A stretch of DNA of 64,000 bases. Source: an uncultured Bacilli bacterium (lineage in GTDB: Bacteria > Bacillota_I > Bacilli_A > RF39 > UBA660). Every line of letters begins with the position of its first letter. Position 1 is the stretch's first letter. The notes under the pieces were generated by a model, which was not told the origin of the DNA, ran no database searches, and saw only the letters and a list, made by a program, of their open reading frames with translations. Below, one piece after another: positions 2,079 to 45,271 of this stretch. Location: assembly GCA_947632065.1 (NCBI GenBank), contig CANRNO010000003.1, forward strand, positions 6,662-70,661, written 5' to 3'. The position numbers and the translations under genes are program-made.

Positions 2079-2801
2079 TTATTTTTTCTTTGTAGTAGTC
2101 TTTTTTGTTGTCTTTTTTGTTGTAGTTTTCTTTGCTGGTGTTTTTTTTGCTGTAGTTGTTTTCTTAGCTGCTGGTTTTTTTGTTGTTTTACTAGCAGTTT
2201 TTTTAGTTGCAGGTTTTCTAGTAGTTGGTTTTTTTACTTCTGCTTTTTTTGTAGTGGTTTTTCTTGTTGTAGTTTTTTTCTTTGCTGGTGTTGTTTTCTT
2301 AGCTGCAACTGTAGTAGTCTTCTTAGGTTTTACACTTACAGGTTTAACAGATTCTTTCTTTTCCACAGCTTTTGTTGATACTTTTCTCTTTCTTGGTGCT
2401 GGTGCTGTATAATCTTTATAATTAAGAACAGCTCCATAAAAATAATAACATGGAATAAGAATTATAATTACATTTATGATAATATCTGCTAATTCTAAAC
2501 TAACATATGACCATGTAGAAATTTGCATTAATATTAATATGAATCCACAAACCATTAGTAATACAGAATGTTTTGGTCTATCTGCGAAAATAACTCCTAA
2601 TAGTCCACCTAAAATATTAACTCCATAAACTCCATAAAGAATAAGTAATCCTCCTAATGCTCTTGTTGCTTCTTCTTGTGATAAAGCTGGAATATTATTT
2701 TTTGACATTAAAAGTATTACTATCCCCAAAATTGAAAGTAAACCTAAAATTATCTCTAAAGTTCCTGTAACTAATAAAATCTTTTTACCTCTTGCTTTCA
2801 T
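2079..2801 (-). CDS. Polytopic membrane protein with a long Lys/Thr/Ala-rich basic C-terminal tail
   Basis: AAGGAG RBS. About 130 aa of TM helices, then about 105 aa of KKTTT/AKKT repeats (nt 2082-2405). Confidence 0.6.
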   Translation of the reverse strand: MKARGKKILLVTGTLEIILGLLSILGIVILLMSKNNIPALSQEEATRALGGLLILYGVYGVNILGGLLGVIFADRPKHSVLLMVCGFILILMQISTWSYVSLELADIIINVIIILIPCYYFYGAVLNYKDYTAPAPRKRKVSTKAVEKKESVKPVSVKPKKTTTVAAKKTTPAKKKTTTRKTTTKKAEVKKPTTRKPATKKTASKTTKKPAAKKTTTAKKTPAKKTTTKKTTKKTTTKKK

Positions 2802-6222: not shown

Positions 6223-7422
6223 TTAGCTAAAGTTAAACATTAGCCATTCTGGTTTTATTATTAATAATATACCAATAATTAATAAAAGAACTCCCCCTAT
6301 TAAATGTGAATATTTACTATATTTAGTAGATATTCCTGTTAATTTCATTGTTGTCATTGCGATTATAAATATGATTAAATCATCTAGTAAGAAAAATAAT
6401 ATATAGATTAATGTATAAATAAATGACATTATTGTAGATACTTCATTAATTGATAATATTTCTGTGAAAACAAGTGGTAGTCCAGCAGAACATGCTAGTT
6501 CTATAATATTTACTGATATAGCCAGTGTTATTACTCCTAGGAGTGCTAATAAAAGACTTTTCTCTGATGTAAATTTTTTGATTTTAGAAAATATTTGTTT
6601 TCTTTTTTTATCATCTACTACTTCACATCCTGAGTCTTTTTTTCTTGATTTTAGATAATTATAAAGATTTATTCCACCACCAAGTATTGCAACTATTGCA
6701 ATTATATTTCTAAGTAATATAGATGTTGAGATAGTAGTTGTAATTTTAAATATTGAAAACATTATTATTAAATACATAAGTGCTGATGTTAATAAGAATG
6801 TTCCTCCTAAAATCCACATTTTTTTTCTATCTTTCATACCTATTAAAGTACTAATTAAAAATAGTAATACCCACATAGCACATGGATTAAACCCATCTAC
6901 TAATCCTATAAGAATAGCTGCGATAGGAATAGATACTTTTAAAACATTCACTTTTCCTATTAAAGGTACATTAATTATTTTATCTGAGCTGTTTTTGGAT
7001 TTTTGACTAGTAATATTTACTTTTTTATTATTTTTTACTTGAGATACTATATCTTCTTCTGGATTATCTATAACTTTTTTTATTGTATCTTCTATATCTT
7101 TTTTATTAACATCTGAATACCCTTCAAAAAAGTGTTTTCCTATTACGGTAAATGGTACTCCTGATGCTTTAGTATTTAGTGCATCAGCTACTTTTTCCAT
7201 TAATCTTTGATTAGAGAAATTATACCATACTTCATACTCTTTTATTTTTAAATCATCTTTATATTTATCTTTAATTTCATCTAGAAAAACTTCTTCTTGA
7301 GCACAATGTGGGCATCCATCTCCATGAAAGAAATATAAAGTAGTTTTTTCTTTTGCTTCAACATTCAAAGAAAATGTTAAAAAGCAGAATAGCGCAACTA
7401 AAGTTAATTTCAAATATTTCAT
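6223..7422 (-). CDS. Secreted thioredoxin/glutaredoxin-like CxxC domain fused to a DsbD/CcdA-like thiol-transfer membrane domain
   Basis: Signal peptide. GDGCPHCAQEE CxxC in a Trx-like fold. The membrane domain carries the FNPCAMW and ELACSAGLP Cys motifs typical of DsbD_2/CcdA-type electron transporters. Confidence 0.6.
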   Translation of the reverse strand: MKYLKLTLVALFCFLTFSLNVEAKEKTTLYFFHGDGCPHCAQEEVFLDEIKDKYKDDLKIKEYEVWYNFSNQRLMEKVADALNTKASGVPFTVIGKHFFEGYSDVNKKDIEDTIKKVIDNPEEDIVSQVKNNKKVNITSQKSKNSSDKIINVPLIGKVNVLKVSIPIAAILIGLVDGFNPCAMWVLLFLISTLIGMKDRKKMWILGGTFLLTSALMYLIIMFSIFKITTTISTSILLRNIIAIVAILGGGINLYNYLKSRKKDSGCEVVDDKKRKQIFSKIKKFTSEKSLLLALLGVITLAISVNIIELACSAGLPLVFTEILSINEVSTIMSFIYTLIYILFFLLDDLIIFIIAMTTMKLTGISTKYSKYSHLIGGVLLLIIGILLIIKPEWLMFNFS

Positions 7423-7689
7423 TTACTTTTCACCTAACTCTTCTATTAAATCTATTATTTTTTCTTTTTTTATTTCTCCTGTTAATCTTTTTAGTTCTTT
7501 ACCATTATCATCAATAAAAATCATAACTGGTAAAATATCTTTTGGATTATATTTTTTTACTTCTTCTTCATCCATATCATAATCCAAATTTATAATCTCT
7601 ATGTTTTTTTCTTTTTCTATTTCATTCCAAACTTTATTCATTACTAAACAGGCACTACACCATATAGCATTTATTTTAATTACTTTCAT
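7423..7689 (-). CDS. Small thioredoxin-family protein
   Basis: 88 aa with a WCSAC active-site-like CxxC. It abuts the downstream gene with no gap and overlaps the upstream desulfurase gene. Confidence 0.6.
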   Translation of the reverse strand: MKVIKINAIWCSACLVMNKVWNEIEKEKNIEIINLDYDMDEEEVKKYNPKDILPVMIFIDDNGKELKRLTGEIKKEKIIDLIEELGEK

Positions 7690-8815
7690 ATAATTCCCCT
7701 AGTTTTTTTATTATTTCTTTTAATTCTTTTATAAAAGTCATTATATCGCTTTCTGTTGTTAAATGTGAAAGACTCATACGAACACTGTGAAGGGCACGTT
7801 CTTCATCTTTTGTGATAGCAAGAACTGAAAGAGATGGAGATGAAGTACTTGTTGAACATGCTGTTTGTGTTGATATAAAAATATCTTTTTCTTCTAATGC
7901 ATGTAGTAATGTTTCTGGTTTTATTTTATCAACACTTATATTAACAATATGTGGTATTGAATATTCATTACTGTTTATTTTTACTTCTTTGATTTTTTCT
8001 AGTTCACTTTTTAAAAGTTTTGATAATTTATTTACATATTCTATATTTTCTTTTTGATGTTCTGTTGCAAGTCGTAGAGCTTTAGCAGTTGATACTATTA
8101 ATCCTATTGCTGGTGTTCCACTTCTAAAAACAGTAGTTGATTTTCCACCATGGATTAAAGGATCAATTGCAACTTTTTCTTTTTTAATTAATCCTCCTAC
8201 TCCTTTTATACCGTAAAACTTTTGAGCAGAGAAACTTGCAAGATCAACATTTGTTAGGTCTACTTCTTCTTTTCCAAGACTTTGAGTAATATCACAATGA
8301 TAGAATGTTTTTGGATTGCTATGAACTACTTTAGCAATCTCATTTATATTTTGAGATACTCCTACTTCACTATTTACACTAGCAATACTTACAAGGATTG
8401 TATCATCTCTTAATAAACTTTTTAGTGAATCTAAATCTACTTGTCCTTTTTCATCTATGTCTACAAAATCTACTTCAAAACCATTATTTTGTAAATAAGA
8501 AATAGGTGCGATTACAGATGAGTGTTCAAGTCTTGATGTTATTATATGTCTACCACGATTTCTAAAATGAGCACATATTCCTTTAATAGCAGTATTATTT
8601 GACTCACTTGCTCCACTTGTATAAATTACTTCACTAGGTTTTACTTTTAAAATGCTTGCGATTTGTTCTGTTGCAGCATCTATTAATTTTTTTCCATTTA
8701 CTCCTAAGTAATGATGTGAATTAGGATTTCCTATAAAATTTCTTGTTGTTTCTATAAAACTTTCTAATACTTCATCATTTACTGGAGTGGTTGCTGAATA
8801 ATCTAAATAAATCAT
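7676..8815 (-). CDS. Cysteine desulfurase, class V aminotransferase (NifS/IscS-like)
   Basis: MIYLDYSATTPV start, a PLP-Lys region SAQKFYGIKGVGGL, and a C-terminal active-site Cys loop QTACSTSTSSPS. Confidence 0.85.
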   Translation of the reverse strand: MIYLDYSATTPVNDEVLESFIETTRNFIGNPNSHHYLGVNGKKLIDAATEQIASILKVKPSEVIYTSGASESNNTAIKGICAHFRNRGRHIITSRLEHSSVIAPISYLQNNGFEVDFVDIDEKGQVDLDSLKSLLRDDTILVSIASVNSEVGVSQNINEIAKVVHSNPKTFYHCDITQSLGKEEVDLTNVDLASFSAQKFYGIKGVGGLIKKEKVAIDPLIHGGKSTTVFRSGTPAIGLIVSTAKALRLATEHQKENIEYVNKLSKLLKSELEKIKEVKINSNEYSIPHIVNISVDKIKPETLLHALEEKDIFISTQTACSTSTSSPSLSVLAITKDEERALHSVRMSLSHLTTESDIMTFIKELKEIIKKLGELYESN

Positions 8816-8876
8816 GTTATCACCACTTTTCTTTTAAATTATACCAAAAAAATGAAAGACTATCTAGTCTTTCTTA

Positions 8877-9581
8877 TTAATTTAATACTTCTTCTGTCAT
8901 TTCTTTTTCTGTAAGTACTATTTTTATAAATTTAACTATATTAAATACTATAATAAGAGCAAGTACTGCCCATATAAAATTTACCCACCAAGGAGTTGCG
9001 GTACAAATTTGTGAAAAAGTATAATGTGCAAAATTATCACAAGATGTAGGCATCTTTATTCTATCTTTAGTTAAATAATAAAAAATAAAATAAATAATTT
9101 CTATATAAAATATTTTCATTCCTCTTTTAGTATGAAATGATACATATTGTGAATCTTTTTTCATTAAATATACATATGGTGCACAAATATATGAAAGTAT
9201 AGCCCATCCTTTATTATTTTCTATTTCTTCTTCTGTAATATTAATTCTATTTTCACTTTTCGATTTAAAAAGAATCTTATTTATATTTTCTATTTTTAAT
9301 TTGTTCTTATTATATCTTTTAGAAAATTTTCTATTTTTAGTTTTCTTAATAGTATCTTTATTTGATGATGAGACACTCATAATAATAGGATCTACTTTTT
9401 CTAATAATTTAGCTTTTTTTATAATATTTTTTTGTGAACTTTTTATCATTACTGATTTATTTTTTTTAGTAGTTTTTCTTTTGTTCTTTTTAGTAGTTTG
9501 TTTATTTTTTACTTTAGCAGTTGTCTTTTTCTTTGTTTTAGCATTAGTTATTTTTTTCTTTTTCTTATTCAACTTCAACAC
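8877..9581 (-). CDS. DUF4870-like membrane protein with a Lys/Thr/Asn-rich basic N-terminal extension
   Basis: N-terminal KKKKITNAKTKKKTTAKVKNKQTTKKNKRKTTKK low-complexity region. The C-terminal TM region contains SQYVSFHTKRGMKIF, resembling the DUF4870 motif. The start codon is uncertain: GTG at 9581, or a TTG a few codons in. Confidence 0.45.
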   Translation of the reverse strand: MLKLNKKKKKITNAKTKKKTTAKVKNKQTTKKNKRKTTKKNKSVMIKSSQKNIIKKAKLLEKVDPIIMSVSSSNKDTIKKTKNRKFSKRYNKNKLKIENINKILFKSKSENRINITEEEIENNKGWAILSYICAPYVYLMKKDSQYVSFHTKRGMKIFYIEIIYFIFYYLTKDRIKMPTSCDNFAHYTFSQICTATPWWVNFIWAVLALIIVFNIVKFIKIVLTEKEMTEEVLN

Positions 9582-9703
9582 CCTCTTTTTATAAAAGTCA
9601 TAAATTAGTTCATATTATAGCACTAAAAATTAATTTTGTTAATCATTTTTTTAAATAATATGTTTTTTTCAAATAAAAAAGTACTTTAATTTAATAAAAT
9701 ACT

Positions 9704-10561
9704 TTAAAATAATGTTAAAATTTCTGAAATTATACCTACTGTTGTTCCTATTGTATAAAGGAGTGCTAGAATAGCAATGTTTTCTTTCATATTTTTATTT
9801 GTTTTAAATAATACTATGAGTGCTACTCCACTACCTGTTAAAAGTCCCGATAAAAGGGAGGCAAAATCTATAATATTATTTAAATATAATTGAGTTATCA
9901 TAACACTTGATGCACAATTCGGGAAAAGTCCTACTAGACTTGAAATGAATGGAGAGAAAATACTACCTTTTAAGAATATTTTGGATATATTATCTTCTCC
10001 AAATAAATATATTACTGAATTTAGGACAAATGTAATTATGAAAATAAATATTATTATATTAATTGTATGCTTTATAGCAGATATAAATATACTTTCTTTT
10101 TCACAATGACAATGTTCGTCATGACAAAAATGTTTTATATTATTTTTTGTTATTTTATTTTGTCTTTTTAATAACCAGTCTATTACTATTCCAAAAAGAA
10201 TTCCTATTATTACTTTAGTTAATAAAATTAAAAGTATTATTTTTATATTTACTCTTTGAGATAATAAGATAGGTAACATTTCATCTGATGTTGATAAGTA
10301 TATAGCAATTAATGTTCCAAGTGTTATTATTCTAGTTGCATAAAGATTAGTAGCAAGAACTGAGAATCCACATTGAGGGATTGCTCCTAGAATAGAACCT
10401 ATTACTGGTCCATATTTTATAGTATGTTCTATTTTTTCTTTACTTTTTTTTGTTATTTTATGTTCAATGTATTCAATAATTAAAAATGCAACAAACAAAA
10501 AAGGAATTAATTTTATTGTATCAATAAATGTTTCAAAAATAATTCCTTTCATAATTTTCAT
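9704..10561 (-). CDS. Polytopic permease with duplicated P-x-C-G/A motifs and a His/Cys-rich loop (ArsP_2/putative heavy-metal exporter-like)
   Basis: GAIPQCGFSV and GLFPNCASSV lie in pseudo-symmetric halves, with a central HFCHDEHCHCEKE loop. The ATG at 10552 has better RBS spacing than the one at 10561. Confidence 0.45.
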   Translation of the reverse strand: MKIMKGIIFETFIDTIKLIPFLFVAFLIIEYIEHKITKKSKEKIEHTIKYGPVIGSILGAIPQCGFSVLATNLYATRIITLGTLIAIYLSTSDEMLPILLSQRVNIKIILLILLTKVIIGILFGIVIDWLLKRQNKITKNNIKHFCHDEHCHCEKESIFISAIKHTINIIIFIFIITFVLNSVIYLFGEDNISKIFLKGSIFSPFISSLVGLFPNCASSVMITQLYLNNIIDFASLLSGLLTGSGVALIVLFKTNKNMKENIAILALLYTIGTTVGIISEILTLF

Positions 10562-28898: not shown

Positions 28899-28986
28899 AG
28901 TTCTACTCCCTTCTTAAAATCTTCTATATTATAGCATATCTATGAAGGTTGTGTCCAATTAAAAATACTGATGTTTAATCAGTATT

Positions 28987-30939
28987 TTATTTTTTCATAA
29001 TAATACTTTTTGTGAATTTTCCTTTCTTAATTGGTATTTCTTTTATTCTACTTGAATACTTTTTCTTCATAGCAGATGAAAAAGCATCTTGTGTAATAAA
29101 GTTTATTAAGCTTGAAATATCACATTTTATAAATCCTTTTTCTGTTATTAATTCCATTTGACCTTCTTCATAACAACTAAATTCTATTTTTTCTAGTGAT
29201 AAATGAGAAAAATAATCTCTAATGATTTTAGCAGTTTGTTCAGGGTTACAACGTAGAACTATTTTGTTTCGGAATATAATTGGTTTTTGTTTATTTTCTT
29301 GTTCAAGTTTAAATTCTACTTCTTTTAATTCTTTTTGTAAATTTATTCTTCTATTTTTATTAGATTCTTTTTTTATTAAACGTATCAATTGGTTTTTTCT
29401 ATTTTCTAAGTATTTTTGTGTTTTTTCATGTTCTGAATAAGCATCTGTGCTGTAGGAATTTATCTTACTTGCATCTATAGGATTTAAATTATCATTTTCA
29501 AAGGCTTTTTCTTTATTTATAGCATACGTAGATATACCTAATGTATAGATAATTGCAAGATCTATTTTTTCTCTTTCTTTTTGAATAATATTTTTTATTT
29601 TTATAGTATTTTTTATTAAGTCACTATTATAAATTTTATTATCTTCTTCACTAGGTAAATTTTCTCTTTCAAAAACTCCTTTATATTTTCTATATATCGA
29701 AGGACGATAATCTTTTAATTTACCTAATTTTATTGTATAGTCTTCTTCTAATTGTAGATTTTCTTTTCTATTAAAGAATTTACGAATAGAGTTTTTTTCT
29801 TTTTTAAATATTGGTACATCTTTAGTACCTATATCCATATTATCATATGAATGAGTAAGTCCTTTTTTACTTCTATATTTATGGATAAATTCTAATATTT
29901 CTTGTTTTCCACATTTAAAGTTTAATATATAATTTATAATATCTTTATTTTCTTTATAACTTTCATCATTTTCAATATTATTATATATTTTTATAGCTGT
30001 ATTTATATCTTCAAATGATTTTATTAAGTCATCTTTAGATTTACTATAGTATTTTTTTAATCTTTTAATTATAACTCTACATTGACCTCTAGTAGACTTT
30101 ATTTGGAAAATATTATTATTCTCAGTATTATATAGTTCATCTAATTTACTTGCGATTTCTAAATCTTTTTCAACTCTTATTATAACTTTTACATCTGGAT
30201 ATTTTTTATAGATTTCTCTTTTTAATTCTCTTTTTGCTTTTTTCCATTTTTCTAAATAATTACGTCTTCCTATTTTCTTTTTAGAAATAGATGCTGAAAT
30301 TTTATTAATTTGTTTTATTACAAAGTTTTTTATTTCTTCTTTTTGCATAAGAGTAGATGATGTTAAATCTATTTTATATGTATAAAGCATTTCTATATAA
30401 TTTTTTATATCATTTATATTATCAAAATGTTCTTTTCTATTGTAGATATCGCTTGTTACAAATACTCCTCTGATACTAATTTTTTTTACTTGTTTTTCTT
30501 CTAAAATATGATAATCCATATATTTCATTAACCATTCAAAAGGTACTTTACATTCAAAGTTTTTTTCTTTGCTATCTATGTGAAATAATTGATTTTTAAA
30601 ATCTATTTTAAAGTCACTATGTAAAAAACCATTTCTAATTCTTTGTAAATTTCTTCTTGATTCTTTTTTATGACTACCTCTAATAATTATTGGTGGATTA
30701 TCACAAAATTCTTTTGTAAATAAATAATCTAATTTTTCTTTGTCCATTCTTAATGTGATTTTATTTTCTGTAAATAAAGTATCTTCTGATAAAACGAAAT
30801 ATGAAAGTGAAAGTGCTAAATTAAAGTTTTCAGACGTTTCAAAAAAACTACTTAATCTTCCATTTATTAAGTTTTCATATTTATCTAATATAATTGATTT
30901 TAGTTCTTCATAAAAAGAAAATTCATTCATCATTTTCAT
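28987..30939 (-). CDS. Orphan 650-aa protein with two HEPN-like R-x4-H motifs (predicted twin-HEPN RNase; function unknown)
   Basis: ATG at 30939 lies 6 nt after an AGGAAGTG RBS. LQRIRNGFLHSDF is encoded at nt 30619-30636 and AKIIRDYFSHLSL at nt 29203-29220. The region between them is Lys-rich and probably helical. I recognise no other known domain. Confidence 0.45.
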   Translation of the reverse strand: MKMMNEFSFYEELKSIILDKYENLINGRLSSFFETSENFNLALSLSYFVLSEDTLFTENKITLRMDKEKLDYLFTKEFCDNPPIIIRGSHKKESRRNLQRIRNGFLHSDFKIDFKNQLFHIDSKEKNFECKVPFEWLMKYMDYHILEEKQVKKISIRGVFVTSDIYNRKEHFDNINDIKNYIEMLYTYKIDLTSSTLMQKEEIKNFVIKQINKISASISKKKIGRRNYLEKWKKAKRELKREIYKKYPDVKVIIRVEKDLEIASKLDELYNTENNNIFQIKSTRGQCRVIIKRLKKYYSKSKDDLIKSFEDINTAIKIYNNIENDESYKENKDIINYILNFKCGKQEILEFIHKYRSKKGLTHSYDNMDIGTKDVPIFKKEKNSIRKFFNRKENLQLEEDYTIKLGKLKDYRPSIYRKYKGVFERENLPSEEDNKIYNSDLIKNTIKIKNIIQKEREKIDLAIIYTLGISTYAINKEKAFENDNLNPIDASKINSYSTDAYSEHEKTQKYLENRKNQLIRLIKKESNKNRRINLQKELKEVEFKLEQENKQKPIIFRNKIVLRCNPEQTAKIIRDYFSHLSLEKIEFSCYEEGQMELITEKGFIKCDISSLINFITQDAFSSAMKKKYSSRIKEIPIKKGKFTKSIIMKK

Positions 30940-30967
30940 AATTAACACTTCCTATTACTCTATCATT

Positions 30968-30976
30968 ATTATAGCA
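30968..30976 (-). promoter_or_regulatory. Candidate extended -10 promoter (TGCTATAAT) for the twin-HEPN gene
   Basis: The minus strand reads aTGcTATAAT about 30 nt upstream of the ATG, immediately after the lon-rdgB terminator. Confidence 0.4.
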
Positions 30977-30983
30977 TAAAAAA

Positions 30984-31002
30984 AGATACTTAAAAAGTAT
31001 CT
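30984..31002 (-). terminator. Rho-independent terminator after rdgB
   Basis: agatact-taaaa-agtatct hairpin, followed by a T run on the minus strand. Confidence 0.6.
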
Positions 31003-35343: not shown

Positions 35344-35712
35344 CTAATTATTAAAAATACTATTTCTACTTTGACAAGATTTCATCCATGTCCAAGTAAG
35401 ATTAGATAGGTTTATTATCTTTTTATTCCATACTTTAACAGTCCTAGTATTAATATATTTCTTTTTATTTGAAATGCGTACTAAAACTTTTAATGTTTTT
35501 AGGGAAGTGTCTAATTGTCCAAGTAATATTTCTTTATTTTCTAGATTTTCTTCTTTATGTGCATGTATTAACATATTAAGTCCATCATATGTTACTTTTT
35601 TTATATCTTCTGTTATATTTTCTTTTTCAGGATATTTCATTAAGATATCTGTTGTAAAACATATTAATTCTACATATTCTTTGTAAATAAGTAAGTTTTC
35701 TAAATCTACCAT
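35344..35712 (-). CDS. Four-helix-bundle protein of the Avd / 23S-rRNA-intervening-sequence protein family
   Basis: 122 aa. LLIYKEYVELICFTTDILMKYPEKE resembles the family N-terminus (xW/YxxAxxLxxxIYxLTxxFPKxE). The C-terminus is basic with a W-rich end (LTWTWMK). The AAGGAG RBS overlaps the stop codon of the upstream gene. Confidence 0.45.
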   Translation of the reverse strand: MVDLENLLIYKEYVELICFTTDILMKYPEKENITEDIKKVTYDGLNMLIHAHKEENLENKEILLGQLDTSLKTLKVLVRISNKKKYINTRTVKVWNKKIINLSNLTWTWMKSCQSRNSIFNN

Positions 35713-35721
35713 AATATCTCC

Positions 35722-36093
35722 TTATAATTTATCTTGTATATCTTTTAATAGTTTCATAGAATCTAGAGGTGTGATATGGTTTATATCAATATTTTTTATG
35801 TTATCAATAATCTTTAAACAAAATTCGTGTGTATAATCAGGTTCTTCTTTATCTAATATTTCAACATTTAAATTATTTAATTCAAATAATTCTTTATACT
35901 TTTCAATACTACTTTTAGGAAATCCACATTTATATAATTCATTAGTTAAGTGTCCTAGTTTTAGGTTGAGTTTTTCACTCATTTTTATAGCATCTTCTCC
36001 TAAGAATAAATAAAATATTCCACTTTCAAATAAATATAATTTTTCTTTGTCTTCTTTTTTACATTTTAAATATCTTTCTTTTAATTTACTCAT
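35722..36093 (-). CDS. Stand-alone MutS domain I-like protein
   Basis: 123 aa. LKERYLKCKKEDKEKLYLFESGIFYLFLGEDAIKMSEKLNLKL....CGFPKSSIEKYKELF aligns with the MutS mismatch-binding domain (YL.LK....D.ILFFR.GDFYELF.EDA......L.I.LT......GVP.......Y...L). The Glu of the Phe-x-Glu motif is absent. Confidence 0.5.
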   Translation of the reverse strand: MSKLKERYLKCKKEDKEKLYLFESGIFYLFLGEDAIKMSEKLNLKLGHLTNELYKCGFPKSSIEKYKELFELNNLNVEILDKEEPDYTHEFCLKIIDNIKNIDINHITPLDSMKLLKDIQDKL

Positions 36094-36234: not shown

Positions 36235-37428
36235 TTATTTGCTTTTACCTTTTTCTTCTTGATAATTGTTTTTTATATCTTTTAATAAATGTTTATATAG
36301 GTAATCTGCTTCTTCTTGTGTCATTTCAAATAATGATTGATTATTTTTATAGTTTTCATAATCTTGTAGTAATTCTTCTAAACTTTTAGGAACAATTTTT
36401 TCATTTTCCTTTTTATATTGTAATTTCAACAGAGGATAATTTTCAAATATATCATTGTTTTTATCTAGTGAATCAAATATATTAGATACGGTATCTTCTT
36501 TTTTATTAAAGAAGCGAGATTCATTTTGAATTAATATTAATTCTGTATTAATTTTATTGTTAATTTCTTCTTTATTATTTATATCTATTCCTAGCATTTG
36601 TAGATAACTACATGTGTATAAATCTCCACAATATCTTGCTTCTGTTTCTTTAGAATACATTGTGTAGTTATCATTATAATAAGAAGGATTTTTACTTCTT
36701 ATAAAGCTCTCTTTAGATTGTAATAAAAGTAAGTAATTAGCATGTTTTCCCGAAGTAATTAAATAATTTTGATATATATGAGTACATTCATGAAAAATAG
36801 TATTTAATAATCCATAGTAATTTTTCTCATTTAAATATTTTAATATTTTATCATAGTTTAAATTTATATTATAGTATTGTGTTTGTCCTTCTGTTTTATC
36901 ATCCAATTCTTTGAAATTAACTTTAGGATTTTTTATTTTTTCTTTCATAAACATTTCTGTAAATCTTTTTATTAATACCATTTTGTTATCAATTATAGTA
37001 TCTAATTTATCTGTCAATAATTCTTTCATTAAGGCATTTATAAAAGTATTACTGTTGTTAGAGTAAATATCATTTTCTATAAAAAACAACATGTAATTAT
37101 TATCCTCATTAGTTAAAGAATTATTTTGTATTTTTGTTAGAATATTATCATGTATATTATCTAATTTATTTTTATAATTTTTCTCAGATAATATTTTAGT
37201 TACTATATCAATGTGAAGAGAATTAATTGAATATAAATTCATTAATTCTTCTTCACTAAATTTTTTTCTCATCTTTAATAAGTCCGTAAGTTTTGTTTGT
37301 AAATGTTTTTGAATATCACTTTTATTATTACAATAACAGCAAGTATTCTTATCATATGTTCCTCCACAGTTTGGACAATGATTATGTTTTTTTATTTCTT
37401 GACATAAATTTATAATTGTTTTACTCAT
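36235..37428 (-). CDS. Zn-ribbon plus HExxH (zincin-like) protein, unknown function
   Basis: N-terminal CPNCGG...CCYC zinc ribbon, FHECTHIYQ metal motif and a downstream ETEARY Glu. It starts 20 nt after the glucan-synthase stop and is probably co-transcribed with it. Confidence 0.5.
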   Translation of the reverse strand: MSKTIINLCQEIKKHNHCPNCGGTYDKNTCCYCNNKSDIQKHLQTKLTDLLKMRKKFSEEELMNLYSINSLHIDIVTKILSEKNYKNKLDNIHDNILTKIQNNSLTNEDNNYMLFFIENDIYSNNSNTFINALMKELLTDKLDTIIDNKMVLIKRFTEMFMKEKIKNPKVNFKELDDKTEGQTQYYNINLNYDKILKYLNEKNYYGLLNTIFHECTHIYQNYLITSGKHANYLLLLQSKESFIRSKNPSYYNDNYTMYSKETEARYCGDLYTCSYLQMLGIDINNKEEINNKINTELILIQNESRFFNKKEDTVSNIFDSLDKNNDIFENYPLLKLQYKKENEKIVPKSLEELLQDYENYKNNQSLFEMTQEEADYLYKHLLKDIKNNYQEEKGKSK

Positions 37429-37448: not shown

Positions 37449-40400
37449 TTATGAATTTCTTTTTATGCAAATATCTATTTTATGAACTTTTTTATCATTG
37501 ATAAGTGGAATTAAATCATTATTTAAGATATGTCTATCTAAAGTTATTTTTTCTTTATTACCTACTGTTACATCAATCATATATAAAGTATCCATATAAG
37601 TATATTGTATTGAGAACTTATTCCAAGATGATGGTATATGAGGTTTTATTCTAAGCATTTCTCCTGTTTTTTGGAAACCTAATATATCTTTTATACCAAT
37701 ACGATAGAACCATGCAGCTGAACCTGTATACCAAGTCCATCCTCCACGTGATGGAAAGTCTTTTGATGAATAAATATCAGCGGCAATTACATAAGGTTCT
37801 ACTTTATATCTTAATATATCTGTTTTAGTTTTACTTCTTTCTATTGGATTAATCATTTGGAAAATGGAATATGCTAAATCGTATTTTCCTGTTTTGATAA
37901 GAGCCATTATATACCAAGATACTGAATGAGTATATTGTCCTCCATTTTCACGTATTCCTTTAGGATAGTTTTTGATATATCCTGGATTATTTAATGATTT
38001 ATCAAATGGTGGTGTTAAAAGTTTTACTATTTTTAAATCTTTATCTACTAAATATTTATCTACAGCATTTAAAACTTTTTCTTGTTTTTCTTTTGGGACA
38101 ACTTCACTTAATATAGAAAAACTTTGTGAAATTAAATCTATTTTACATTCTTCATTTAGTTTACTTCCAAGTTTATCTCCATTATCGAAATATGCTCTTA
38201 AATAATATTCTTTATCCCATCCGTTTTTATTAAGGCTCTCTTTTAATTTTTTATTAAATTCTAAATACTCTTTAGTTTTAAATCTTGGTTTGTATTCTTT
38301 TATCATTTTAGTAAAACGATTAATAATATCATATAAGAAGAATCCTAACCAAACACTTTCTCCCTTTCCTTTAATACCTACTTTATTCATTCCATCATTC
38401 CAGTCTCCTCCACCCATTAAAGGAAGACCATTGCGACCTATATTATCAATAGCAAGATCGATTGACTTTTGTAAATGAGTAAGTAGTGTATCTTTTTCTT
38501 CACTATAAGTGAAAGTAACTCCTTTTTCTTGTTCGTGTGGACGAAGAGTTTCTGCGACTGCATATGGTACTTTTTCATCTAATATAGAATTATCTCTTGT
38601 TACATCTATATATTCAATTGTTGCATATACTAACCAAAGATAATCATCTTTATAACGACTACGAAGTCCAAATGTATTATGTTCGTGCCACCAATGAAGA
38701 ACATCTCCTTCTTTGAATTGATGGGATGCATTTATTAGAATTTGTTTTCTTGTAAAGTCTGGTTTTATTGTAACAATATTCATTGAATCTTGTAATTGAT
38801 CACGATATCCATAAGCACCACTTACTTGGTAAAATCCTGATCGTGCTAAAATTCTTGCGGATAATGCTTGATATAAATACCAACCATTCATCATATAATT
38901 GAAACTAATATCAGGAGTTTTTACTACTATTGTACCTAAGTCTTTTTTCCATTTATTTTTAACTGATTTTAATTCTTTTGTTGCAGTATTTATATCTTGA
39001 TATTTATGAAGTAAATCTAAATTTTCTTTATCACTTCTACCACTACCTAAACTAAATACAATAGTTTTTTCTTCTTCTTTATTTAAAGTAATATTATTAG
39101 TAATAGATTTTATTAAAACTTGATTATCAACAACTGATGTTATTTTTTCACTTGATGTCATAAATACTGATACATCATTAAAATTAGCATGATAAACATT
39201 TCTCATTTTTAAGTAATTATCTTTGCCCATAAACTCAGTTAAGATATATCTAGTAGTTTTTTCTTCTAACACTCCAAATGTTGGATTTATAAAGAATTCT
39301 AACTGTACTGATTGTTTTATCTTTTTCTTGTTTTTTAATTTTAAAATATATAATTTTACAGTATCATCTAAGGCAACAAATTCAGTTAAGCTTTTATCTA
39401 AATCATCATTAGTAGATTCTAAAATACTATATCCAAATCCATGAATACATCTAGTTGGATTAAATATTTTTCCATTTATTCTTATTCCTTCACTTCTATC
39501 ATTTACAACCATTTCATTAGACCAAGAAGTTATTTTAAACTCTCCACTATTATATCCATAAGTAAATCCACAGCCATTGTTAGTAATTATAGTACCAAAA
39601 TTTTTATTTGCGATTACATTACTCCATGGAGTTGGAGTTTGTGGATTTGTGATAACGTATTCACTACCTTTGCTTCTAAAGCCTCCAAATTCATTATTAC
39701 ATGTAAGTTTTATATTATCTTCAAATTCATTATTATCTTCTAGAAGTATTTCTTCTTTGGTACTAACTTTATTTTTCATACTCATTTCTTCTACTTTTTC
39801 TTGTAGTGTTTTATGATCACTTACATCAAAAGTTAGTCTTGGAACCATTTCTAGAAGTATTTTTTCTTCTTCTGTTAAATCTTCTTCACTTATAAGATTT
39901 ACTGAACCTGGTGTATGATAGAAACTATTCAATGTATAAATTCTATAAAGTTCATCATCTACTTCTTTTTTAATTATTTTAGCATATTGTTTATTTTCAG
40001 CATTTATAATAATTATATCTACAAATATTGAATTGTTTTTATAATATTCAAAACATTTTAAAATATCCATTATAAATGAAATATCACTTATATCAGGAAC
40101 TTTTACTAGGATAATTGGTCTATCTCCAGATATTCCAAACTTCCAAAGTGCAGTTTGAGATAAAGCATTTTTTCTTAAAATTTCTTTTCTTTCTTCATTA
40201 ACATTATATTTTGTTGTTTGATATAAGTAGTTTAACATCATATTATAAACTCTCATATCTTCACCTGTTAATCTCATATTTTTAGTATTTATAATATTTG
40301 ATACAGATGATATTTCAAACGCTTTATCAATAGTTCTTTTATTATGATATGTATTAATTATTTCATCTAATTGTTCCATACTTCTTCCAAATCCGTTAAT

Positions 40401-43400
40401 AAAGTATACTACTTCACTACTGTTTGGAAGTACTTCTATTGTATTTCTTAGTGACATTATTGGTTCGATATTATCTCCTACATGGTTGGTTAATTCTTCG
40501 TGAAGAGCTTTTGGATTTGCGGCAGTATTACCTCTTCCAATAAAGTTAAATCTATCTGTCTCATAAGTGTAGACACTTTTTGGATTTTCTATTAATAGTC
40601 TTTCTACTATATAACTACTAATATTACTATCACGTGAAGTTCTTCTCATTATTAAAGTATTATTATCCCTATTGTAAGTTGAATGTAGGAACATGTTGTT
40701 GAATACTTTATGAGATATATCATCTAAGTTTTCACAGATTATTGGTTCTGTATAAGTTGTAAGTTCTAAATGTTTTGTTTCTTCACTTTCATTTTTAAAT
40801 GTTATCTTTCTAATTTCTGCATGATGATTATGAGTAACTATTATTTCTGTTGTAGTTATAATACCATTATCTTTTCTTATATATTTTATCTTATCACTTG
40901 CGAATATTACTTCATATTTTTCTGGTTTAATGTTTATTGGTGCATAAGTATTAGACCAAACATAATCAGTATCTATATCTTTTATGTATAAAAACATTCC
41001 ATAATCTTGTTCTGATATTTTTCTATATCTATTTAGTTGTTGAGTTCTATATCTTGAAAAACCAGTACCTCTATCATTTATAAGTAGGCAATATTTTTTA
41101 TTAGAGATACTTGCGAACTCTGGTGTTTCTGATATATAGTTAAATACTCTAATATCATTTTCAATACGTTCTTTATCATAATTATATTTTTTATATTTAG
41201 CCATTTTCATATCTATATTAGTTTTTACTTGAACTTTTTCTTTTAATAATAGTTCGAATGTTTTTACTGAAATATCTCTATGAAAATATCCTTTTATTTT
41301 TCCTTCTGTTAGATAGTTTGCAAACGATAAAAGACACATTCCTTGATGATGAGCAAAGTATGCTTTTACTATTCCTTTATTATCATAGTCATATGATTCA
41401 TAAAAACCATATTTATCATACATATTAAGTTTTCTAAATTTCTTTATATTGTGATAAACATCTTTTGGGAATAATTCAAGTGCCATAATTGATGAATATG
41501 GAGATATAACAATTCTGGCATCACTTTCTTCTTTAGCTTTTAAGTATGGAGTTGAGAAGCTTTTATATTTGTAGTTTAAGGCATTATCAAGTTCATTATA
41601 TGCACTTTCACTAATTCCCCAAGGAAGTTTTTTTGAAACACTTTCCATATAATCTACTTGGCACATATGGGCAAAATGATATGTCTCATCTAATAGGGTG
41701 TTTTTATAATTTTTCATAAATAGAAATGGCATAAAATATTCAAATGATGTTCCAGACCAAGAGATAAGTCCTTTTCTATTTTTATAAGTTGTAAGTGATT
41801 TATCAAGTGAAAGCCAATGTTTACTTGGTACATCTCCTTTACATATCGCAACAAAACTAGTTAGACGAGATTCACTTGCGAATTTATTGTAATTATAAAT
41901 TGATAAATGTCCTTCTGCTTCATCGTATCCAATTGAAAATACATTTTTCTTTGTATATAGTTTTTTAAAATTAGTATTTTTAATCATAGTCTCTACTTTT
42001 TTTCTTAATTTAAAGTGAACTCCAATATCATCTACTTTTTCTAAAAAGTTTTTAACTATTATTAAGCATGCTACAAAGTTTCCTGAATCTATTGTTGATA
42101 TAAATCTTGGATTCATAGCTTTTTTGGTTTTTATGTCATACCAGTTATATAAATGTCCATGCCATTTTTCTAAATGAGAGACTGTTTTTATAACATTTTT
42201 AATCAATTCTATTGCTTCATCTAAACTAATAAAGTCTAATTCGTATGCTGAGATAATACTAGTAAGTGAATAACCTATATTAGTAGGAGAAGTTCTTAAA
42301 TCTAATTTCTCTTCTCTATTTTCTTGGAAATTATCTGGCATTAAATATCCATATTCTTCTTTCATAGAATCTTTAAAAAACATCCAAGTCCTGTAGGCCA
42401 TTTTCTTTATGTTATCATTGTCTGTATCACTAAGTGGTGTTAAATCTTCTTTTATATCTTTACTTACGTTATATAAAACAAATGGACTTGATACAAAGAT
42501 AATTCCTACTAGTAGTGGTATAACACTAATGTAGTATGCTCCATATCCTATTAAGATTAATCCTAATAATATATTAAATATAAAATCTTTTATATAACTT
42601 GTTATATCTGTTTTAGCATTTCTTTCTGCCTCTTCCATAGAAAGCCAATTAAGAAGATTTTTATGACTTATAAACATTCTATAAATACTACGACAAAAAG
42701 CATCTAAGTATAATTTTGCATAATATGGAATAGTTGAAAATACTATATAAGTTCTAAGAAATAGTGCTTTTCCTCCAAACATTAAATTTTTATAATATAG
42801 TGTTAAGAAATTAGTTTTCTTTTTATATAGTTTTTCTCTTAGGAAGAATAATACTCCTAATGCTATATCAAATAAGACAAATAATAAGTAAACATATGGA
42901 GGCATTTTTCCTATAAAAAATCCTAGTAATAATATTAATAATAAAGCAGGCATTAAAAACATACGAGCTATATTATCAAATATTTTATATCTACCTAATA
43001 AGTTTATAGGATTCTTTTCATTTTTATTTTTATGATTTTTAACATTAAAATTTAGCCAACTTAATATTTGGACATCTCCTCTAGCCCAACGATGTTGACG
43101 TGTTACATCTGTTAAAAATTTAGGTGGAAAACCATCAATTAATTCTATATCTGAGGCATAACCACATCTTAAATAATTACCTTCTAATAAATCATGACTT
43201 AATATTAAATTATCTGGAAAACGATTATATAAAACTTCATCAAATGTTTTTAGATCATATATTCCTTTTCCAATAAAACTTCCTTCATTAAAAGAGTCTT
43301 GATAAACATGAGGTATTATTGCAGTATAAGTATCAAATCCTCCAATACCTGCGAATACTTGAGCATAAACTGATGAGTTAGTGGATTCTATATCAACACT

Positions 43401-45125
43401 TACTCTAGGTTGTAGTAATCCATATCCATACTCTACTTTATTTTTTTCTTTATTTAACACTGGTCTATTTAATGGATGATCCATAGCACCTACTAGTAGA
43501 AGTGCAGTATTTAATACTAATTCAGTATCTGTATCTAGAGTTATAACATATTTTATTTCTTGTTTTATTTTATCAATTGTTTGAGCATAGAAGAATTTTT
43601 CTTTGTCTTTATCAGTCATCTTTCCAAGAAGTAAATGACTAAAATGAAGGAGTGCTCCACGTTTTCTTTCCCATCCTAAATATGTATCTTCACTTTTTGA
43701 AAAGAATCTTTTTCTATAAGCAAAATGAAATATTTCTTTTCCGTATTTCTCATTTAATTCATGTGAATATTTTAATCCTGCTTCTTTTATTTCTTCATCT
43801 ATATCTACATATTTTTTTGATTTACTAGTAGCATCTGCAAGAAGTGAAAAGTAAATATTATTGCTTTTATTAACTAAGTAATATGTTTCAAGTTTTGAAA
43901 ACATTTCTTTAACTTTTGTTGCATCTCCTACTAATGTAGTTATAACAACCATAGTAGCTGCATCTTCAGGAAGTCCTTTTGAATAATCCATTTTACATAG
44001 AGGTTTTGGTTCAACAAAAGTTGTTAGTAAATGGTTTATTATTTGAATTATTAATTGGCTTACTGGAATTATTAATATTATAAATCCTAATATTTTATTT
44101 TCTATAAAGTAATTTGTAAAGAATAATGTAATTAAAATAGAAGATATTAAAATAGTTAATATGTATATACTTACTCTAAAGGTATTTTTTTTAGGTTTAA
44201 ATAAAAGTGTTCCAATATGGTAATTATCACTATTTGAAGTTCTAAACAAATCTTCTATATAATCTATTTCATTTATGTGTTTATGTCTTGCATCTTTAAT
44301 TATTTTTTTACGGTATAAACTTCTTGTTTCTGGTGTCATTTTAGTATATATTTTATCTCCAAGTAATTTTTTCTCACAGTTATTAGCACCTTTTAATAAT
44401 TCTTCTATTGAATAGTTTTCATAAAAATCTTTTAAATTATTAAATATATTAGAAATGATTATATTAGAATCTATTCTTCTTTGATATTCATCGTTTAATA
44501 TTTCTCTAATACTAATATTTTGTTTTTGTAATAGAATATTTAACTCTCTAAAAGCTTGATTACTTTTAGCACCAAATTCTTTTAATTGATTATTAATTTC
44601 AAATATATAATTAGTACGATTATTAATGCTATTATTAATGTCTAGAAAGTCTTTAATATTTATTTTTTCATCTTTGTCTATTCCTTCAAGCAACTTTTCT
44701 ACTTTCTTTTTATCTTGTAATCTTTGATATTCTAATTTGTATACTTTATTTAATTTTTCTGTATATATAAACAAAAGGACTAAAGGTATTACATCAAATT
44801 CATTATAACTTAAATAAGTCTTAGTTTCTTTTTGATACTTATTTAATTCTTTTACTAAATTGGAAATATTTATATTGTAATTATATCTACTAACTATATC
44901 ATGAATTAAATAGTAAACGTTTTCATTTTTATATAATCTTTTACTATTTTCTTTTTTTTCAAGAATGATTATATTTTTATGTTCAACAATTAAATAATAA
45001 TTATCTATTAACCATTCATTTGCGATACCGACATATTCATGATTTTTTGTTAAATCAACAAGATAATTATAGTATTCTGTAATCTCATCAAAATTTTCCA
45101 TAAATCTTTTTATAAATTTGTCCAT
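37449..45125 (-). CDS. Cyclic beta-1,2-glucan synthase-like giant protein (membrane GT84-like glycosyltransferase plus GH94 phosphorylase-like domains)
   Basis: ATG at 45125 follows an AAAGGTGA RBS. TM helices, WERKRGALL, ITLDTDTEL (DxD), QHRWARGD (QxxRW), more TM helices, and a C-terminal GGGDWNDGMN motif of the GH94 type. Confidence 0.8.
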   Translation of the reverse strand: MDKFIKRFMENFDEITEYYNYLVDLTKNHEYVGIANEWLIDNYYLIVEHKNIIILEKKENSKRLYKNENVYYLIHDIVSRYNYNINISNLVKELNKYQKETKTYLSYNEFDVIPLVLLFIYTEKLNKVYKLEYQRLQDKKKVEKLLEGIDKDEKINIKDFLDINNSINNRTNYIFEINNQLKEFGAKSNQAFRELNILLQKQNISIREILNDEYQRRIDSNIIISNIFNNLKDFYENYSIEELLKGANNCEKKLLGDKIYTKMTPETRSLYRKKIIKDARHKHINEIDYIEDLFRTSNSDNYHIGTLLFKPKKNTFRVSIYILTILISSILITLFFTNYFIENKILGFIILIIPVSQLIIQIINHLLTTFVEPKPLCKMDYSKGLPEDAATMVVITTLVGDATKVKEMFSKLETYYLVNKSNNIYFSLLADATSKSKKYVDIDEEIKEAGLKYSHELNEKYGKEIFHFAYRKRFFSKSEDTYLGWERKRGALLHFSHLLLGKMTDKDKEKFFYAQTIDKIKQEIKYVITLDTDTELVLNTALLLVGAMDHPLNRPVLNKEKNKVEYGYGLLQPRVSVDIESTNSSVYAQVFAGIGGFDTYTAIIPHVYQDSFNEGSFIGKGIYDLKTFDEVLYNRFPDNLILSHDLLEGNYLRCGYASDIELIDGFPPKFLTDVTRQHRWARGDVQILSWLNFNVKNHKNKNEKNPINLLGRYKIFDNIARMFLMPALLLILLLGFFIGKMPPYVYLLFVLFDIALGVLFFLREKLYKKKTNFLTLYYKNLMFGGKALFLRTYIVFSTIPYYAKLYLDAFCRSIYRMFISHKNLLNWLSMEEAERNAKTDITSYIKDFIFNILLGLILIGYGAYYISVIPLLVGIIFVSSPFVLYNVSKDIKEDLTPLSDTDNDNIKKMAYRTWMFFKDSMKEEYGYLMPDNFQENREEKLDLRTSPTNIGYSLTSIISAYELDFISLDEAIELIKNVIKTVSHLEKWHGHLYNWYDIKTKKAMNPRFISTIDSGNFVACLIIVKNFLEKVDDIGVHFKLRKKVETMIKNTNFKKLYTKKNVFSIGYDEAEGHLSIYNYNKFASESRLTSFVAICKGDVPSKHWLSLDKSLTTYKNRKGLISWSGTSFEYFMPFLFMKNYKNTLLDETYHFAHMCQVDYMESVSKKLPWGISESAYNELDNALNYKYKSFSTPYLKAKEESDARIVISPYSSIMALELFPKDVYHNIKKFRKLNMYDKYGFYESYDYDNKGIVKAYFAHHQGMCLLSFANYLTEGKIKGYFHRDISVKTFELLLKEKVQVKTNIDMKMAKYKKYNYDKERIENDIRVFNYISETPEFASISNKKYCLLINDRGTGFSRYRTQQLNRYRKISEQDYGMFLYIKDIDTDYVWSNTYAPINIKPEKYEVIFASDKIKYIRKDNGIITTTEIIVTHNHHAEIRKITFKNESEETKHLELTTYTEPIICENLDDISHKVFNNMFLHSTYNRDNNTLIMRRTSRDSNISSYIVERLLIENPKSVYTYETDRFNFIGRGNTAANPKALHEELTNHVGDNIEPIMSLRNTIEVLPNSSEVVYFINGFGRSMEQLDEIINTYHNKRTIDKAFEISSVSNIINTKNMRLTGEDMRVYNMMLNYLYQTTKYNVNEERKEILRKNALSQTALWKFGISGDRPIILVKVPDISDISFIMDILKCFEYYKNNSIFVDIIIINAENKQYAKIIKKEVDDELYRIYTLNSFYHTPGSVNLISEEDLTEEEKILLEMVPRLTFDVSDHKTLQEKVEEMSMKNKVSTKEEILLEDNNEFEDNIKLTCNNEFGGFRSKGSEYVITNPQTPTPWSNVIANKNFGTIITNNGCGFTYGYNSGEFKITSWSNEMVVNDRSEGIRINGKIFNPTRCIHGFGYSILESTNDDLDKSLTEFVALDDTVKLYILKLKNKKKIKQSVQLEFFINPTFGVLEEKTTRYILTEFMGKDNYLKMRNVYHANFNDVSVFMTSSEKITSVVDNQVLIKSITNNITLNKEEEKTIVFSLGSGRSDKENLDLLHKYQDINTATKELKSVKNKWKKDLGTIVVKTPDISFNYMMNGWYLYQALSARILARSGFYQVSGAYGYRDQLQDSMNIVTIKPDFTRKQILINASHQFKEGDVLHWWHEHNTFGLRSRYKDDYLWLVYATIEYIDVTRDNSILDEKVPYAVAETLRPHEQEKGVTFTYSEEKDTLLTHLQKSIDLAIDNIGRNGLPLMGGGDWNDGMNKVGIKGKGESVWLGFFLYDIINRFTKMIKEYKPRFKTKEYLEFNKKLKESLNKNGWDKEYYLRAYFDNGDKLGSKLNEECKIDLISQSFSILSEVVPKEKQEKVLNAVDKYLVDKDLKIVKLLTPPFDKSLNNPGYIKNYPKGIRENGGQYTHSVSWYIMALIKTGKYDLAYSIFQMINPIERSKTKTDILRYKVEPYVIAADIYSSKDFPSRGGWTWYTGSAAWFYRIGIKDILGFQKTGEMLRIKPHIPSSWNKFSIQYTYMDTLYMIDVTVGNKEKITLDRHILNNDLIPLINDKKVHKIDICIKRNS

Positions 45126-45271
45126 CTGTATCACCTTTTACAATATAGGAATATATTGTTCCTTCCATTTTTATTATAACACGAAAATCATATTTTTAAA
45201 TGTAAAAAAGATGCATTCCTTGTTCTTAAGTATGTCATCTTTTTATTTCTTAATATTTAATATTAAATTTT

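Follow-up and report, generated by a model that had tools for sequence, protein, structure and literature searches.

What might a gene be doing that stands alone among housekeeping genes of an uncultured bacterium, and that encodes a protein with two matches to the HEPN RNase signature R-[N/D/H]-x3-H, one near each end of the chain? The gene lies on 64,000 nucleotides of an uncultured Bacilli bacterium (assembly GCA_947632065.1, contig CANRNO010000003.1, positions 6,662 to 70,661), here called the window. An earlier annotation, made from the letters of this DNA (the original prediction), likened the protein to Cas13b-type effectors and offered three readings: a guide-independent twin-HEPN RNase of abortive infection, a Cas13 relative or ancestor-like protein, or an effector served by a CRISPR array elsewhere in the genome. 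Two key points are at issue: (i) whether the protein is related to Cas13; and (ii) whether it acts alone, and in defence. Our best reading is the first of the three. The gene appears to be the first-noticed member of an undescribed protein family, and we think it somewhat probable that the protein, founding that family, is a stand-alone single-chain twin-HEPN RNase that is released by a trigger, works without guide, array or partner, and arrests the infected cell by cleaving RNA.

The family emerged only from an exhaustive search. The full-length protein has no meaningful match in Pfam, NCBIfam, PADLOC or the PDB sequences; PDB matches to seryl-tRNA synthetase, aldehyde decarbonylase and pyrophosphatase were rejected as coiled-coil or short-motif coincidence. 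A word-indexed search gave a sole relative (P0002, 50% identity), from an "uncultured Bacilli" metagenome-assembled genome of rabbit gut, and when repeated with the family alignment it drowned in low-complexity words and recovered nothing beyond the two proteins already known. With HMMER, 58 of 1.84 billion representatives scored E<=0.001; most of them measure 570-770 aa, and the G+C content of every family contig that was fetched is 20-27%. Forty-four full-length members could be aligned, at about 20% identity, and none of them (0/44) matches a Pfam or PADLOC model. In the literature on twin or tandem HEPN proteins we found no described bacterial family of this kind.

Across these 44 proteins the only invariant columns are the arginine and histidine of the two motifs, which lie exactly where the original prediction had placed them:

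30619..30636, minus strand: HEPN motif 1, RNGFLH, R102 to H107; R102 and H107 invariant in 44/44
29203..29220, minus strand: HEPN motif 2, RDYFSH, R574 to H579; R574 and H579 invariant in 44/44

The motifs are 467 aa apart, motif 1 standing 102 aa from the N-terminus and motif 2 standing 71 aa from the C-terminus, much as predicted (about 470, 100 and 70). Their family consensus is [IL]R[DN][SGC][IL]xH for motif 1 and [IL]R[ND][CS][FL][SA]H for motif 2, the residue after the arginine being N or D in all members and in both motifs. Conservation peaks at aa 41-60 (LSKE), 101-140, 461-480 (INKE) and 561-620, with N475 conserved in 98% and G468 in 91% of the alignment, and is lowest at aa 260-460. 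Arginine and histidine are scarce in this proteome, as had been remarked (3.3% and 1.7% in the long open reading frames (ORFs) of the window), and R[NDH]xxxH occurs six times in the 19,342 residues of these ORFs; two of the six are in the twin-HEPN protein, and the chance of two in 650 aa is P ~0.009.

Whether the motifs belong to true HEPN domains was judged from a predicted structure and from weak profile matches. An AlphaFold model built on a two-sequence alignment was unusable (pLDDT 54), and that built on the 44-sequence alignment is confident (pLDDT 90, pTM 0.86). In the latter, each motif closes a 13-residue helix (94-106 and 566-578), of which the histidine is the first residue beyond the end; each motif helix is preceded by a helical hairpin and followed by a three-stranded beta-meander and a helix. 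In the order of its secondary-structure elements the model fits HEPN twice, once per module. The modelled parts of the protein are listed here, with omega (the ratio of nonsynonymous to synonymous divergence, dN/dS) against the syntenic ortholog:

30490..30939, minus strand: N-terminal HEPN-like module, aa 1-150, placed by the model, conservation peaks and weak HEPN matches, omega 0.36; predicted elements are helix 6-25, helix 37-55, an insert, motif helix 94-106, beta-meander 110-133 and helix 134-148
30781..30792, minus strand: helix-2 signature L-S-E-D (LSKE in the family), which aligns with "LPKE" of the pEK499 HEPN nuclease
30160..30489, minus strand: predicted alpha/beta segment, aa 151-260, the fastest-evolving part
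29623..30159, minus strand: predicted central helical region, aa 261-439, with little conservation among family members, omega 0.55
29044..29622, minus strand: C-terminal HEPN-like module, aa 440-632, placed by the model, conservation and weak HEPN matches, omega ~0.3; predicted elements are helices 440-473, a hairpin insert 498-549, motif helix 566-578, beta-meander 585-607 and helices 608-632
29509..29520, minus strand: I-N-K-E, aa 474-477, helix-2 signature of module 2, colinear with the LSKE of module 1 when the alignment omits the insert
29284..29448, minus strand: helical-hairpin insert of module 2 in the model, 55 aa

The L-S-E-D signature is a candidate for the conserved acidic residue of HEPN helix 2, a residue whose role has been described (PMC3710099), and helical-hairpin inserts at the equivalent position are also described for HEPN domains (PMC3710099).

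When the isolated N- and C-modules of all 44 members were scanned against Pfam at permissive thresholds, the C-modules matched pEK499_p136 in 8/44 (best E 3.7e-4), Abi_2 in 3/44 and Ribonuc_2-5A in 1/44, and the N-modules matched DUF3644 in 7/44, pEK499_p136 in 4/44 and DUF4209 in 1/44. DUF3644, DUF4209 and pEK499_p136 are counted as HEPN families in a survey of the superfamily (PMC3710099). The Abi_2 matches are confined to the three C-modules, with E of at least 0.03, and no full protein gives one; the best pEK499_p136 module match reaches 20.7 bits against a gathering threshold of 26.6 bits, and the modules of the window protein itself do not match pEK499_p136. Aligned by hhalign with the 166-aa pEK499 HEPN nuclease, both modules give E 0.02-0.03, the alignment keeping in register the [LI]xKE helix, the hRNxxxH motif and the strand-rich part that comes next; the plasmid homologs of that nuclease are all at least 74% identical, too uniform for a useful comparison profile. 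The two halves of the protein also align with each other colinearly if the insert of module 2 is left out (129 columns, E ~0.009), the internal-duplication tests being weak overall (E 0.002-0.01). In the profile comparison with HEPN and Abi_2 that the original prediction had proposed, matches of isolated modules recur below threshold, and none reaches the gathering score.

Taken together with the pattern of invariance, these sub-threshold links make it likely that the protein belongs to the HEPN superfamily, and the motifs, with their invariant residues and HEPN-like helical contexts, look functional, as had been supposed. By their weak matches, the two diverged modules seem closest to the small, plasmid-borne pEK499_p136 type of "HEPN family nuclease". 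What is new is likely a HEPN family that, as the model depicts it, joins two modules in a single chain, an unusual architecture, and carries beta-meander inserts. Because the model is compact and confident (pTM 0.86), it argues for domains packed in a fixed arrangement.

The supposed kinship with Cas13b found no support. Foldseek, given the model of pLDDT 90 and 350,542 PDB chains that include structures of Cas13a, b, bt and d and of AbiF (8VZ6), gave no match at E<=0.001, and what it listed below E=10 was coiled-coil noise; a search of BFVD likewise gave no match at E<=0.001. None of the 44 members (0/44) matches a Cas13, cas or NCBIfam profile, and profiles of the modules reach no Cas13 chain in the PDB even at E<=10. 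"DYFSH", on which the likeness to type VI-B had been based, is peculiar to the window ortholog and is not the family consensus, and the VI-B signature "RNYYSH" could not be confirmed in the literature consulted. The argument that the protein is shorter than the known compact Cas13s fails because Cas13an measures 429-577 aa (PMC12165695). The absence of an array, cas genes and accessory genes nearby, by contrast, was correctly noted. No CRISPR-like array was found in the window or beside the homologs of about 17 distinct loci, array scans covering the window and thirteen loci (L001-L013); there are no core cas genes in the 64-kb window, and the gene maps of a further eight loci (L014-L021) are without cas genes. 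An Rfam scan of the window found one tRNA and no other family, and a permissive scan of the gene and its spacers found no CRISPR repeat and no abiF motif RNA (RF03085). At gathering score, Rfam found in eight homolog loci only a T-box leader of a neighbouring gene, and no conserved structured element is evident in the spacers of 12 loci. The protein is Cas13-like only in its fused HEPN pair; it has no detectable kinship with Cas13 and is not a Cas13 member. If functional, its HEPN-pair fusion probably arose independently of that of Cas13.

How the gene has evolved is the main guide to what it may do. In three species (those of the window, L001 and L006) the same slot between lon and an ABC-F gene holds it, in the shared order MutS_I fragment, bAvd-like gene, PGI, lon, (rdgB), twin-HEPN gene, ABC-F and a CarD-like ORF. 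In L006 (1-4702) rdgB, the Ham1-like gene, is absent, which leaves the twin-HEPN gene immediately between lon and ABC-F. Between the window and L001, amino acid identity is 99% for ABC-F, 95% for Lon, 92% for PGI, 91% for the CarD-like ORF and 86% for RdgB, and 50% for the twin-HEPN protein; between the window and L006 it is 84% for Lon and 87% for ABC-F, and 33% for the twin-HEPN protein. Nucleotide identity is 0.85-0.97 in the flanks versus 0.56-0.77 within the gene, with sharp edges at the gene borders. Synonymous divergence (dS) of the twin-HEPN gene is 0.71, versus 0.25-0.71 in the flanking genes. Since this lies within the range of the neighbours, replacement at the window locus by an anciently diverged allele or through horizontal gene transfer is ruled out. 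Nonsynonymous divergence (dN) is 0.39 versus 0.005-0.07, 6-80 times higher than in the flanking genes, and omega is 0.55 versus 0.02-0.13. The gene has diverged in place with a hugely accelerated protein rate.

This rate is unevenly distributed along the protein. Omega is 0.36 in the HEPN1 module, 0.31 in the HEPN2 motif module, 0.55 in the central helical region and about 1.5 in aa 151-260, the last figure being from one pairwise comparison in which 96% of bootstrap replicates exceed 1 and the 95% interval is 0.89-2.82. That segment is only 28% identical to its counterpart in the syntenic ortholog (dN 0.62, dS 0.40). There is accordingly purifying selection on both HEPN modules and very fast change between them. 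A rate so far above that of the housekeeping neighbours points to a self-contained anti-phage or conflict nuclease, and aa 151-260 may be considered a candidate sensor or specificity surface.

Outside the close relatives the gene does not keep its position. No neighbour gene recurs among 13 distinct homolog loci, there is one copy per locus, and no integrases or defence islands are found there; the neighbours are ordinary (RecG, thymidylate kinase, NUDIX, S41 peptidase, phosphoketolase, small alarmone synthetase). The only context that hints at a conflict-system neighbourhood is L010, where a HerA/DUF87-type ATPase on the opposite strand and a "GT4-conflict" glycosyltransferase precede the homolog (7111-9957), and a 331-aa protein without a Pfam match follows it; the same 331-aa protein neighbours the homolog in L011. 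Two distant loci show direct repeats of a terminator-like hairpin, 59 nt long and 97% identical in L008 (169-227 and 2308-2366, spacing 2139 nt) and 43 nt and 81% in L013 (432-474 and 2772-2814, spacing 2340 nt). These repeats bracket the family gene and its promoter, with no integrase or transposase nearby, which suggests that the single-gene unit can be inserted as a cassette, just after a terminator and with the site duplicated. No flanking direct repeats of this kind occur at the window's own locus. The proposal of a small defence or toxin insertion finds partial support, in the cassette-like repeats of the two distant loci; the gene of the window, which occupies the same slot in three species and has diverged in place, did not arrive by recent insertion.

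The gene is a monocistronic unit with its own promoter and with terminators on both sides, as had been described. The minus-strand ORF at 28987..30948 would give 653 aa from a GTG start. An ATG at 30939 begins 8 nt past the ribosome-binding site AGGAAG (30953-30948), and the GTG at 30948 is an unlikely start because it overlaps that site. The coding sequence is therefore taken as 28987..30939 on the minus strand (650 aa and stop), and the database version of the protein (P0001, identical in independent public assemblies) also has 650 aa and an ATG start. The signals around it are:

30978..31002, minus strand: terminator of rdgB, upstream of the gene, hairpin and T-run
30976-30968, minus strand: extended -10 box TGCTATAAT
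30948..30976, minus strand: the gene's own expression signals, -10 box and ribosome-binding site; a similar layout of hairpin, TATAAT and ribosome-binding site lies 5′ of most homologs
28961..28986, minus strand: the gene's own terminator, hairpin and T-run after the stop codon
28957-28928: promoter of ABC-F, beyond the gene's terminator

The rdgB terminator was missed by a G+C-biased scan because its stem is A+T-rich. The two spacers that flank the gene are 70 and 88 nt long and are fully explained by terminator, promoter and ribosome-binding site.

From these properties we infer RNase activity, pairing of two half-sites within one chain, activation by a trigger and a role in defence, where the protein would probably be a fast-evolving sensor-effector. 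One HEPN module at each end of the protein would supply one R-x4-H half-site, and the two modules may pack together within one polypeptide to form a composite RNase centre, on the model of the intramolecular site of Cas13 and of the homodimers formed by other HEPN proteins. The roughly 300-400 aa between the modules (the alpha/beta segment of aa 151-260 and the variable helical region) could keep the enzyme in check until a trigger, most plausibly a phage component, releases it. RNA cleavage would then arrest the infected cell in the manner of abortive infection. Such a mechanism would need no guide RNA, CRISPR array or partner gene.

Several points weigh against this proposal. No HEPN profile is matched at its curated threshold, all sequence links to HEPN being below it, and Foldseek found neither a HEPN nor any other structure for the model in PDB or BFVD at E<=0.001. 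The defence role leans mainly on evolutionary rate, given that the neighbours are housekeeping genes, that there are no defence islands, and that no copies were found in phage, plasmid or IMG/VR collections (the last searched with a subfamily alignment). As to the rate itself, omega above 1 in aa 151-260 comes from a single NG86 comparison in an A+T-rich genome, with a bootstrap interval that includes 1. Within species, alleles differ by one or two residues, and broken versions of the gene are seen in two 90% clusters: in P0003/P0005, on one 21.6-kb ENA contig, and in P0008, the gene is split into pieces of 259 and 283 aa or yields a 370-aa product whose C-terminus is altered. If real, such inactivations would suggest a dispensable gene; they could also be assembly errors.

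The same facts bear on the alternatives. The protein might be a lineage-specific nuclease of housekeeping RNA processing or decay in these small, very A+T-rich gut Bacilli, a bacterial analogue of the Las1 or Ire1-type HEPN enzymes, whose gene would lie among core genes as one of their number. Eukaryotic housekeeping HEPN RNases do exist (PMC3710099), and the position between lon/rdgB and ABC-F kept in three species, ordinary chromosomal neighbours elsewhere (RecG, thymidylate kinase, NUDIX, phosphoketolase), the single copy per locus and the lack of mobile-element genes and of phage or plasmid copies would all suit such an enzyme. A housekeeping enzyme would not, however, be expected to show dN 6-80 times that of flanking genes at similar dS, with omega 0.55 overall and about 1.5 in one segment, nor only four invariant columns family-wide, truncated alleles, a position lost beyond close relatives and a family as sparse as 58 clusters among 1.84 billion representatives, and we regard this explanation as unlikely, if still worth weighing. 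A second possibility to consider is that the protein acts as toxin in a toxin-antitoxin or addiction module, with an antitoxin that has gone unrecognised, either an antisense or cis RNA like the AbiFr of AbiF or the product of a tiny ORF. HEPN toxins commonly pair with antitoxins, AbiF using a cis-encoded noncoding RNA (PMC12165695; PMC12737573), Abi_2 is among the weak matches, and in L012 a 151-aa ORF overlaps the gene's stop codon. An RNA antitoxin is made unlikely by spacers so small (70 and 88 nt) and so fully occupied by terminator, promoter and ribosome-binding site; the permissive Rfam scan was empty, with no RF03085, no conserved structured element is evident in the spacers of 12 loci, and a protein antitoxin is disfavoured by the lack of a recurrent neighbour in 13 loci. 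Such a module seems to us quite improbable.

An RNA-guided effector, either a Cas13 relative or ancestor-like protein that draws on an array or guide elsewhere in the genome, would account for the presence of two HEPN motifs in one chain, close to either terminus, by which Cas13 is defined (PMC12165695), and for a size between those of Cas13an and Cas13bt. Against it, the window and L001-L013 are without arrays, cas genes are lacking in the window and in the maps of L014-L021, the 44 members match no Cas13 or cas profile, Foldseek is empty against Cas13a, b, bt, d and AbiF, module profiles miss the Cas13 chains at E<=10, the "VI-B-like" DYFSH is limited to the window ortholog, and the closest weak matches are pEK499_p136 and DUF3644 rather than the AbiD/F lineage. 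Nothing supports a trans-encoded guide, and this reading is extremely improbable. Finally, the motifs could be non-catalytic and the protein a structural or RNA-binding one, or else derived from HEPN and inactive. HEPN domains without activity are known (PMC3710099), and the lack of a profile match at threshold and of a structural match would suit that idea. On the other side, the motif arginines and histidines are the sole invariant residues at about 20% identity, always with N or D after the arginine, a pattern from which a catalytic rather than a scaffold role is to be expected, and we hold a non-catalytic protein to be very improbable.

Returning to the stand-alone twin-HEPN RNase, we put forward more tentatively a bolder form of it, in which the protein would have evolved independently as the counterpart of Cas13 that uses no guide. 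Here two p136-like HEPN domains, fused around a rapidly diversifying sensor, would make a one-protein innate immune RNase, fixed at a chromosomal site of small-genome gut Bacilli and engaged in an arms race with their phages. This is possible rather than probable. If it is true, a fused, switchable HEPN pair arose at least twice, once without an RNA guide, and the family would offer a compact RNase scaffold (~600-650 aa) that is activated by a trigger and resembles no solved structure. A single-chain twin-HEPN lineage without an RNA partner would make HEPN-pair fusion a recurrent design of self-contained RNases, and would serve as an outgroup for what the binding of guide RNA added. The four frozen residues, set against a hyper-variable segment at a fixed site, lead to the hypothesis that the trigger is recognised by aa 151-260. 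Pfam, NCBIfam and PADLOC hold no model for the family, which also lacks a structural neighbour, and its hosts are uncultured low-GC gut Bacilli, a poorly studied group, not least in its defence repertoire.

Other features of the window deserve brief mention. A 123-aa protein consisting of MutS domain I only is paired with a 122-aa bAvd-like protein at 35344-36093 on the minus strand, with no reverse transcriptase adjacent, and the pair is also present in L001 and L003; bAvd is a four-helix bundle, the accessory protein of diversity-generating retroelements. Beside the pair, at 36235-37428 on the minus strand, lies a 397-aa ORF without a Pfam match, and at the same spot in L001 (150-2075) an unrelated 641-aa gene, also without a Pfam match; neither belongs to the twin-HEPN family, and the spot is a second variable one. 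A giant ORF of 2561 aa follows at 37449-45134 on the minus strand. In L003 the equivalent ORF has Glycoamylase, GH94 beta-supersandwich and Glyco_hydro_94 domains, which is consistent with a cyclic beta-1,2-glucan synthase or phosphorylase-like enzyme, unusual for a small-looking, A+T-rich genome. PADLOC, applied to 34 ORFs of the window, gave isolated matches to LmuA (2e-17), Avs1a (4e-11), PDC-S48 (7.5e-27), PDC-M48B and RTasMBL, and housekeeping look-alikes (an IscS-like protein against DndA/SspA, and the PolC exonuclease against DEDDh); the matches are single generic domains, and no complete defence system is evident among these ORFs. Imperfect tandem repeats of 15/30/33 nt at 2084-2279 fall in a 240-aa ORF (2079-2801, minus strand) and encode a repetitive, low-complexity protein segment, and a 24/48-nt repeat at 9441-9563 lies inside the ORF at 8877-9581. 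About 39/46 of the window genes of at least 120 aa are on the minus strand, and GC skew is negative in nearly every 2-kb bin, the cumulative skew falling monotonically to -4.66; the window therefore sits within one replichore, with strong co-orientation. Such co-orientation is typical of low-GC Firmicutes and Mollicutes-like genomes.

Compared with known systems, the twin-HEPN protein is unlike Csx1/Csm6 in that it lacks a CARF or SAVED sensor domain, lies outside any type III CRISPR context and matches them neither by profile nor by structure. Eukaryotic Swt1 is a precedent for a HEPN dyad in one non-CRISPR chain (PMC3710099, Table 1); it is PIN-fused, its HEPN motif is "partly conserved" according to that table, and no sequence match to the twin-HEPN protein was seen. 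AbiD/AbiF (Abi_2, PF07751), HEPN nucleases of abortive infection in low-GC Firmicutes, are encoded by a single gene, as is the protein described here, and Abi_2 is a weak match of 3/44 C-modules. AbiF, however, carries a single HEPN domain, dimerises symmetrically and is held in check by a cis noncoding RNA (RF03085), whereas the twin-HEPN protein has two modules per chain, no RF03085-type RNA that we could find and no Foldseek match to 8VZ6. The commonest weak Pfam match of both modules (12 module matches) is pEK499_p136 (PF18736; WP_000528932.1, Escherichia coli plasmid pEK499), a 166-aa single-domain protein of conjugative enterobacterial plasmids and presumably a homodimer; the twin-HEPN protein differs in having two modules in a 650-aa chain, about 400 aa of extra domains, a chromosomal location in low-GC Bacilli and a score below gathering. 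The origin of Cas13 itself has been traced to toxins of the AbiF type, which are homodimers with an RNA as antitoxin (PMC12165695, PMC12737573). The twin-HEPN protein departs from Cas13 in lacking an array, cas genes and an associated RNA, in showing no sequence or Foldseek similarity, and in having other closest HEPN relatives. It resembles Cas13 in being a single-gene effector with two R-x4-H motifs in one polypeptide, one near each end (PMC12165695), and by analogy this likeness would imply that here, too, a composite RNase site is assembled within a single chain.

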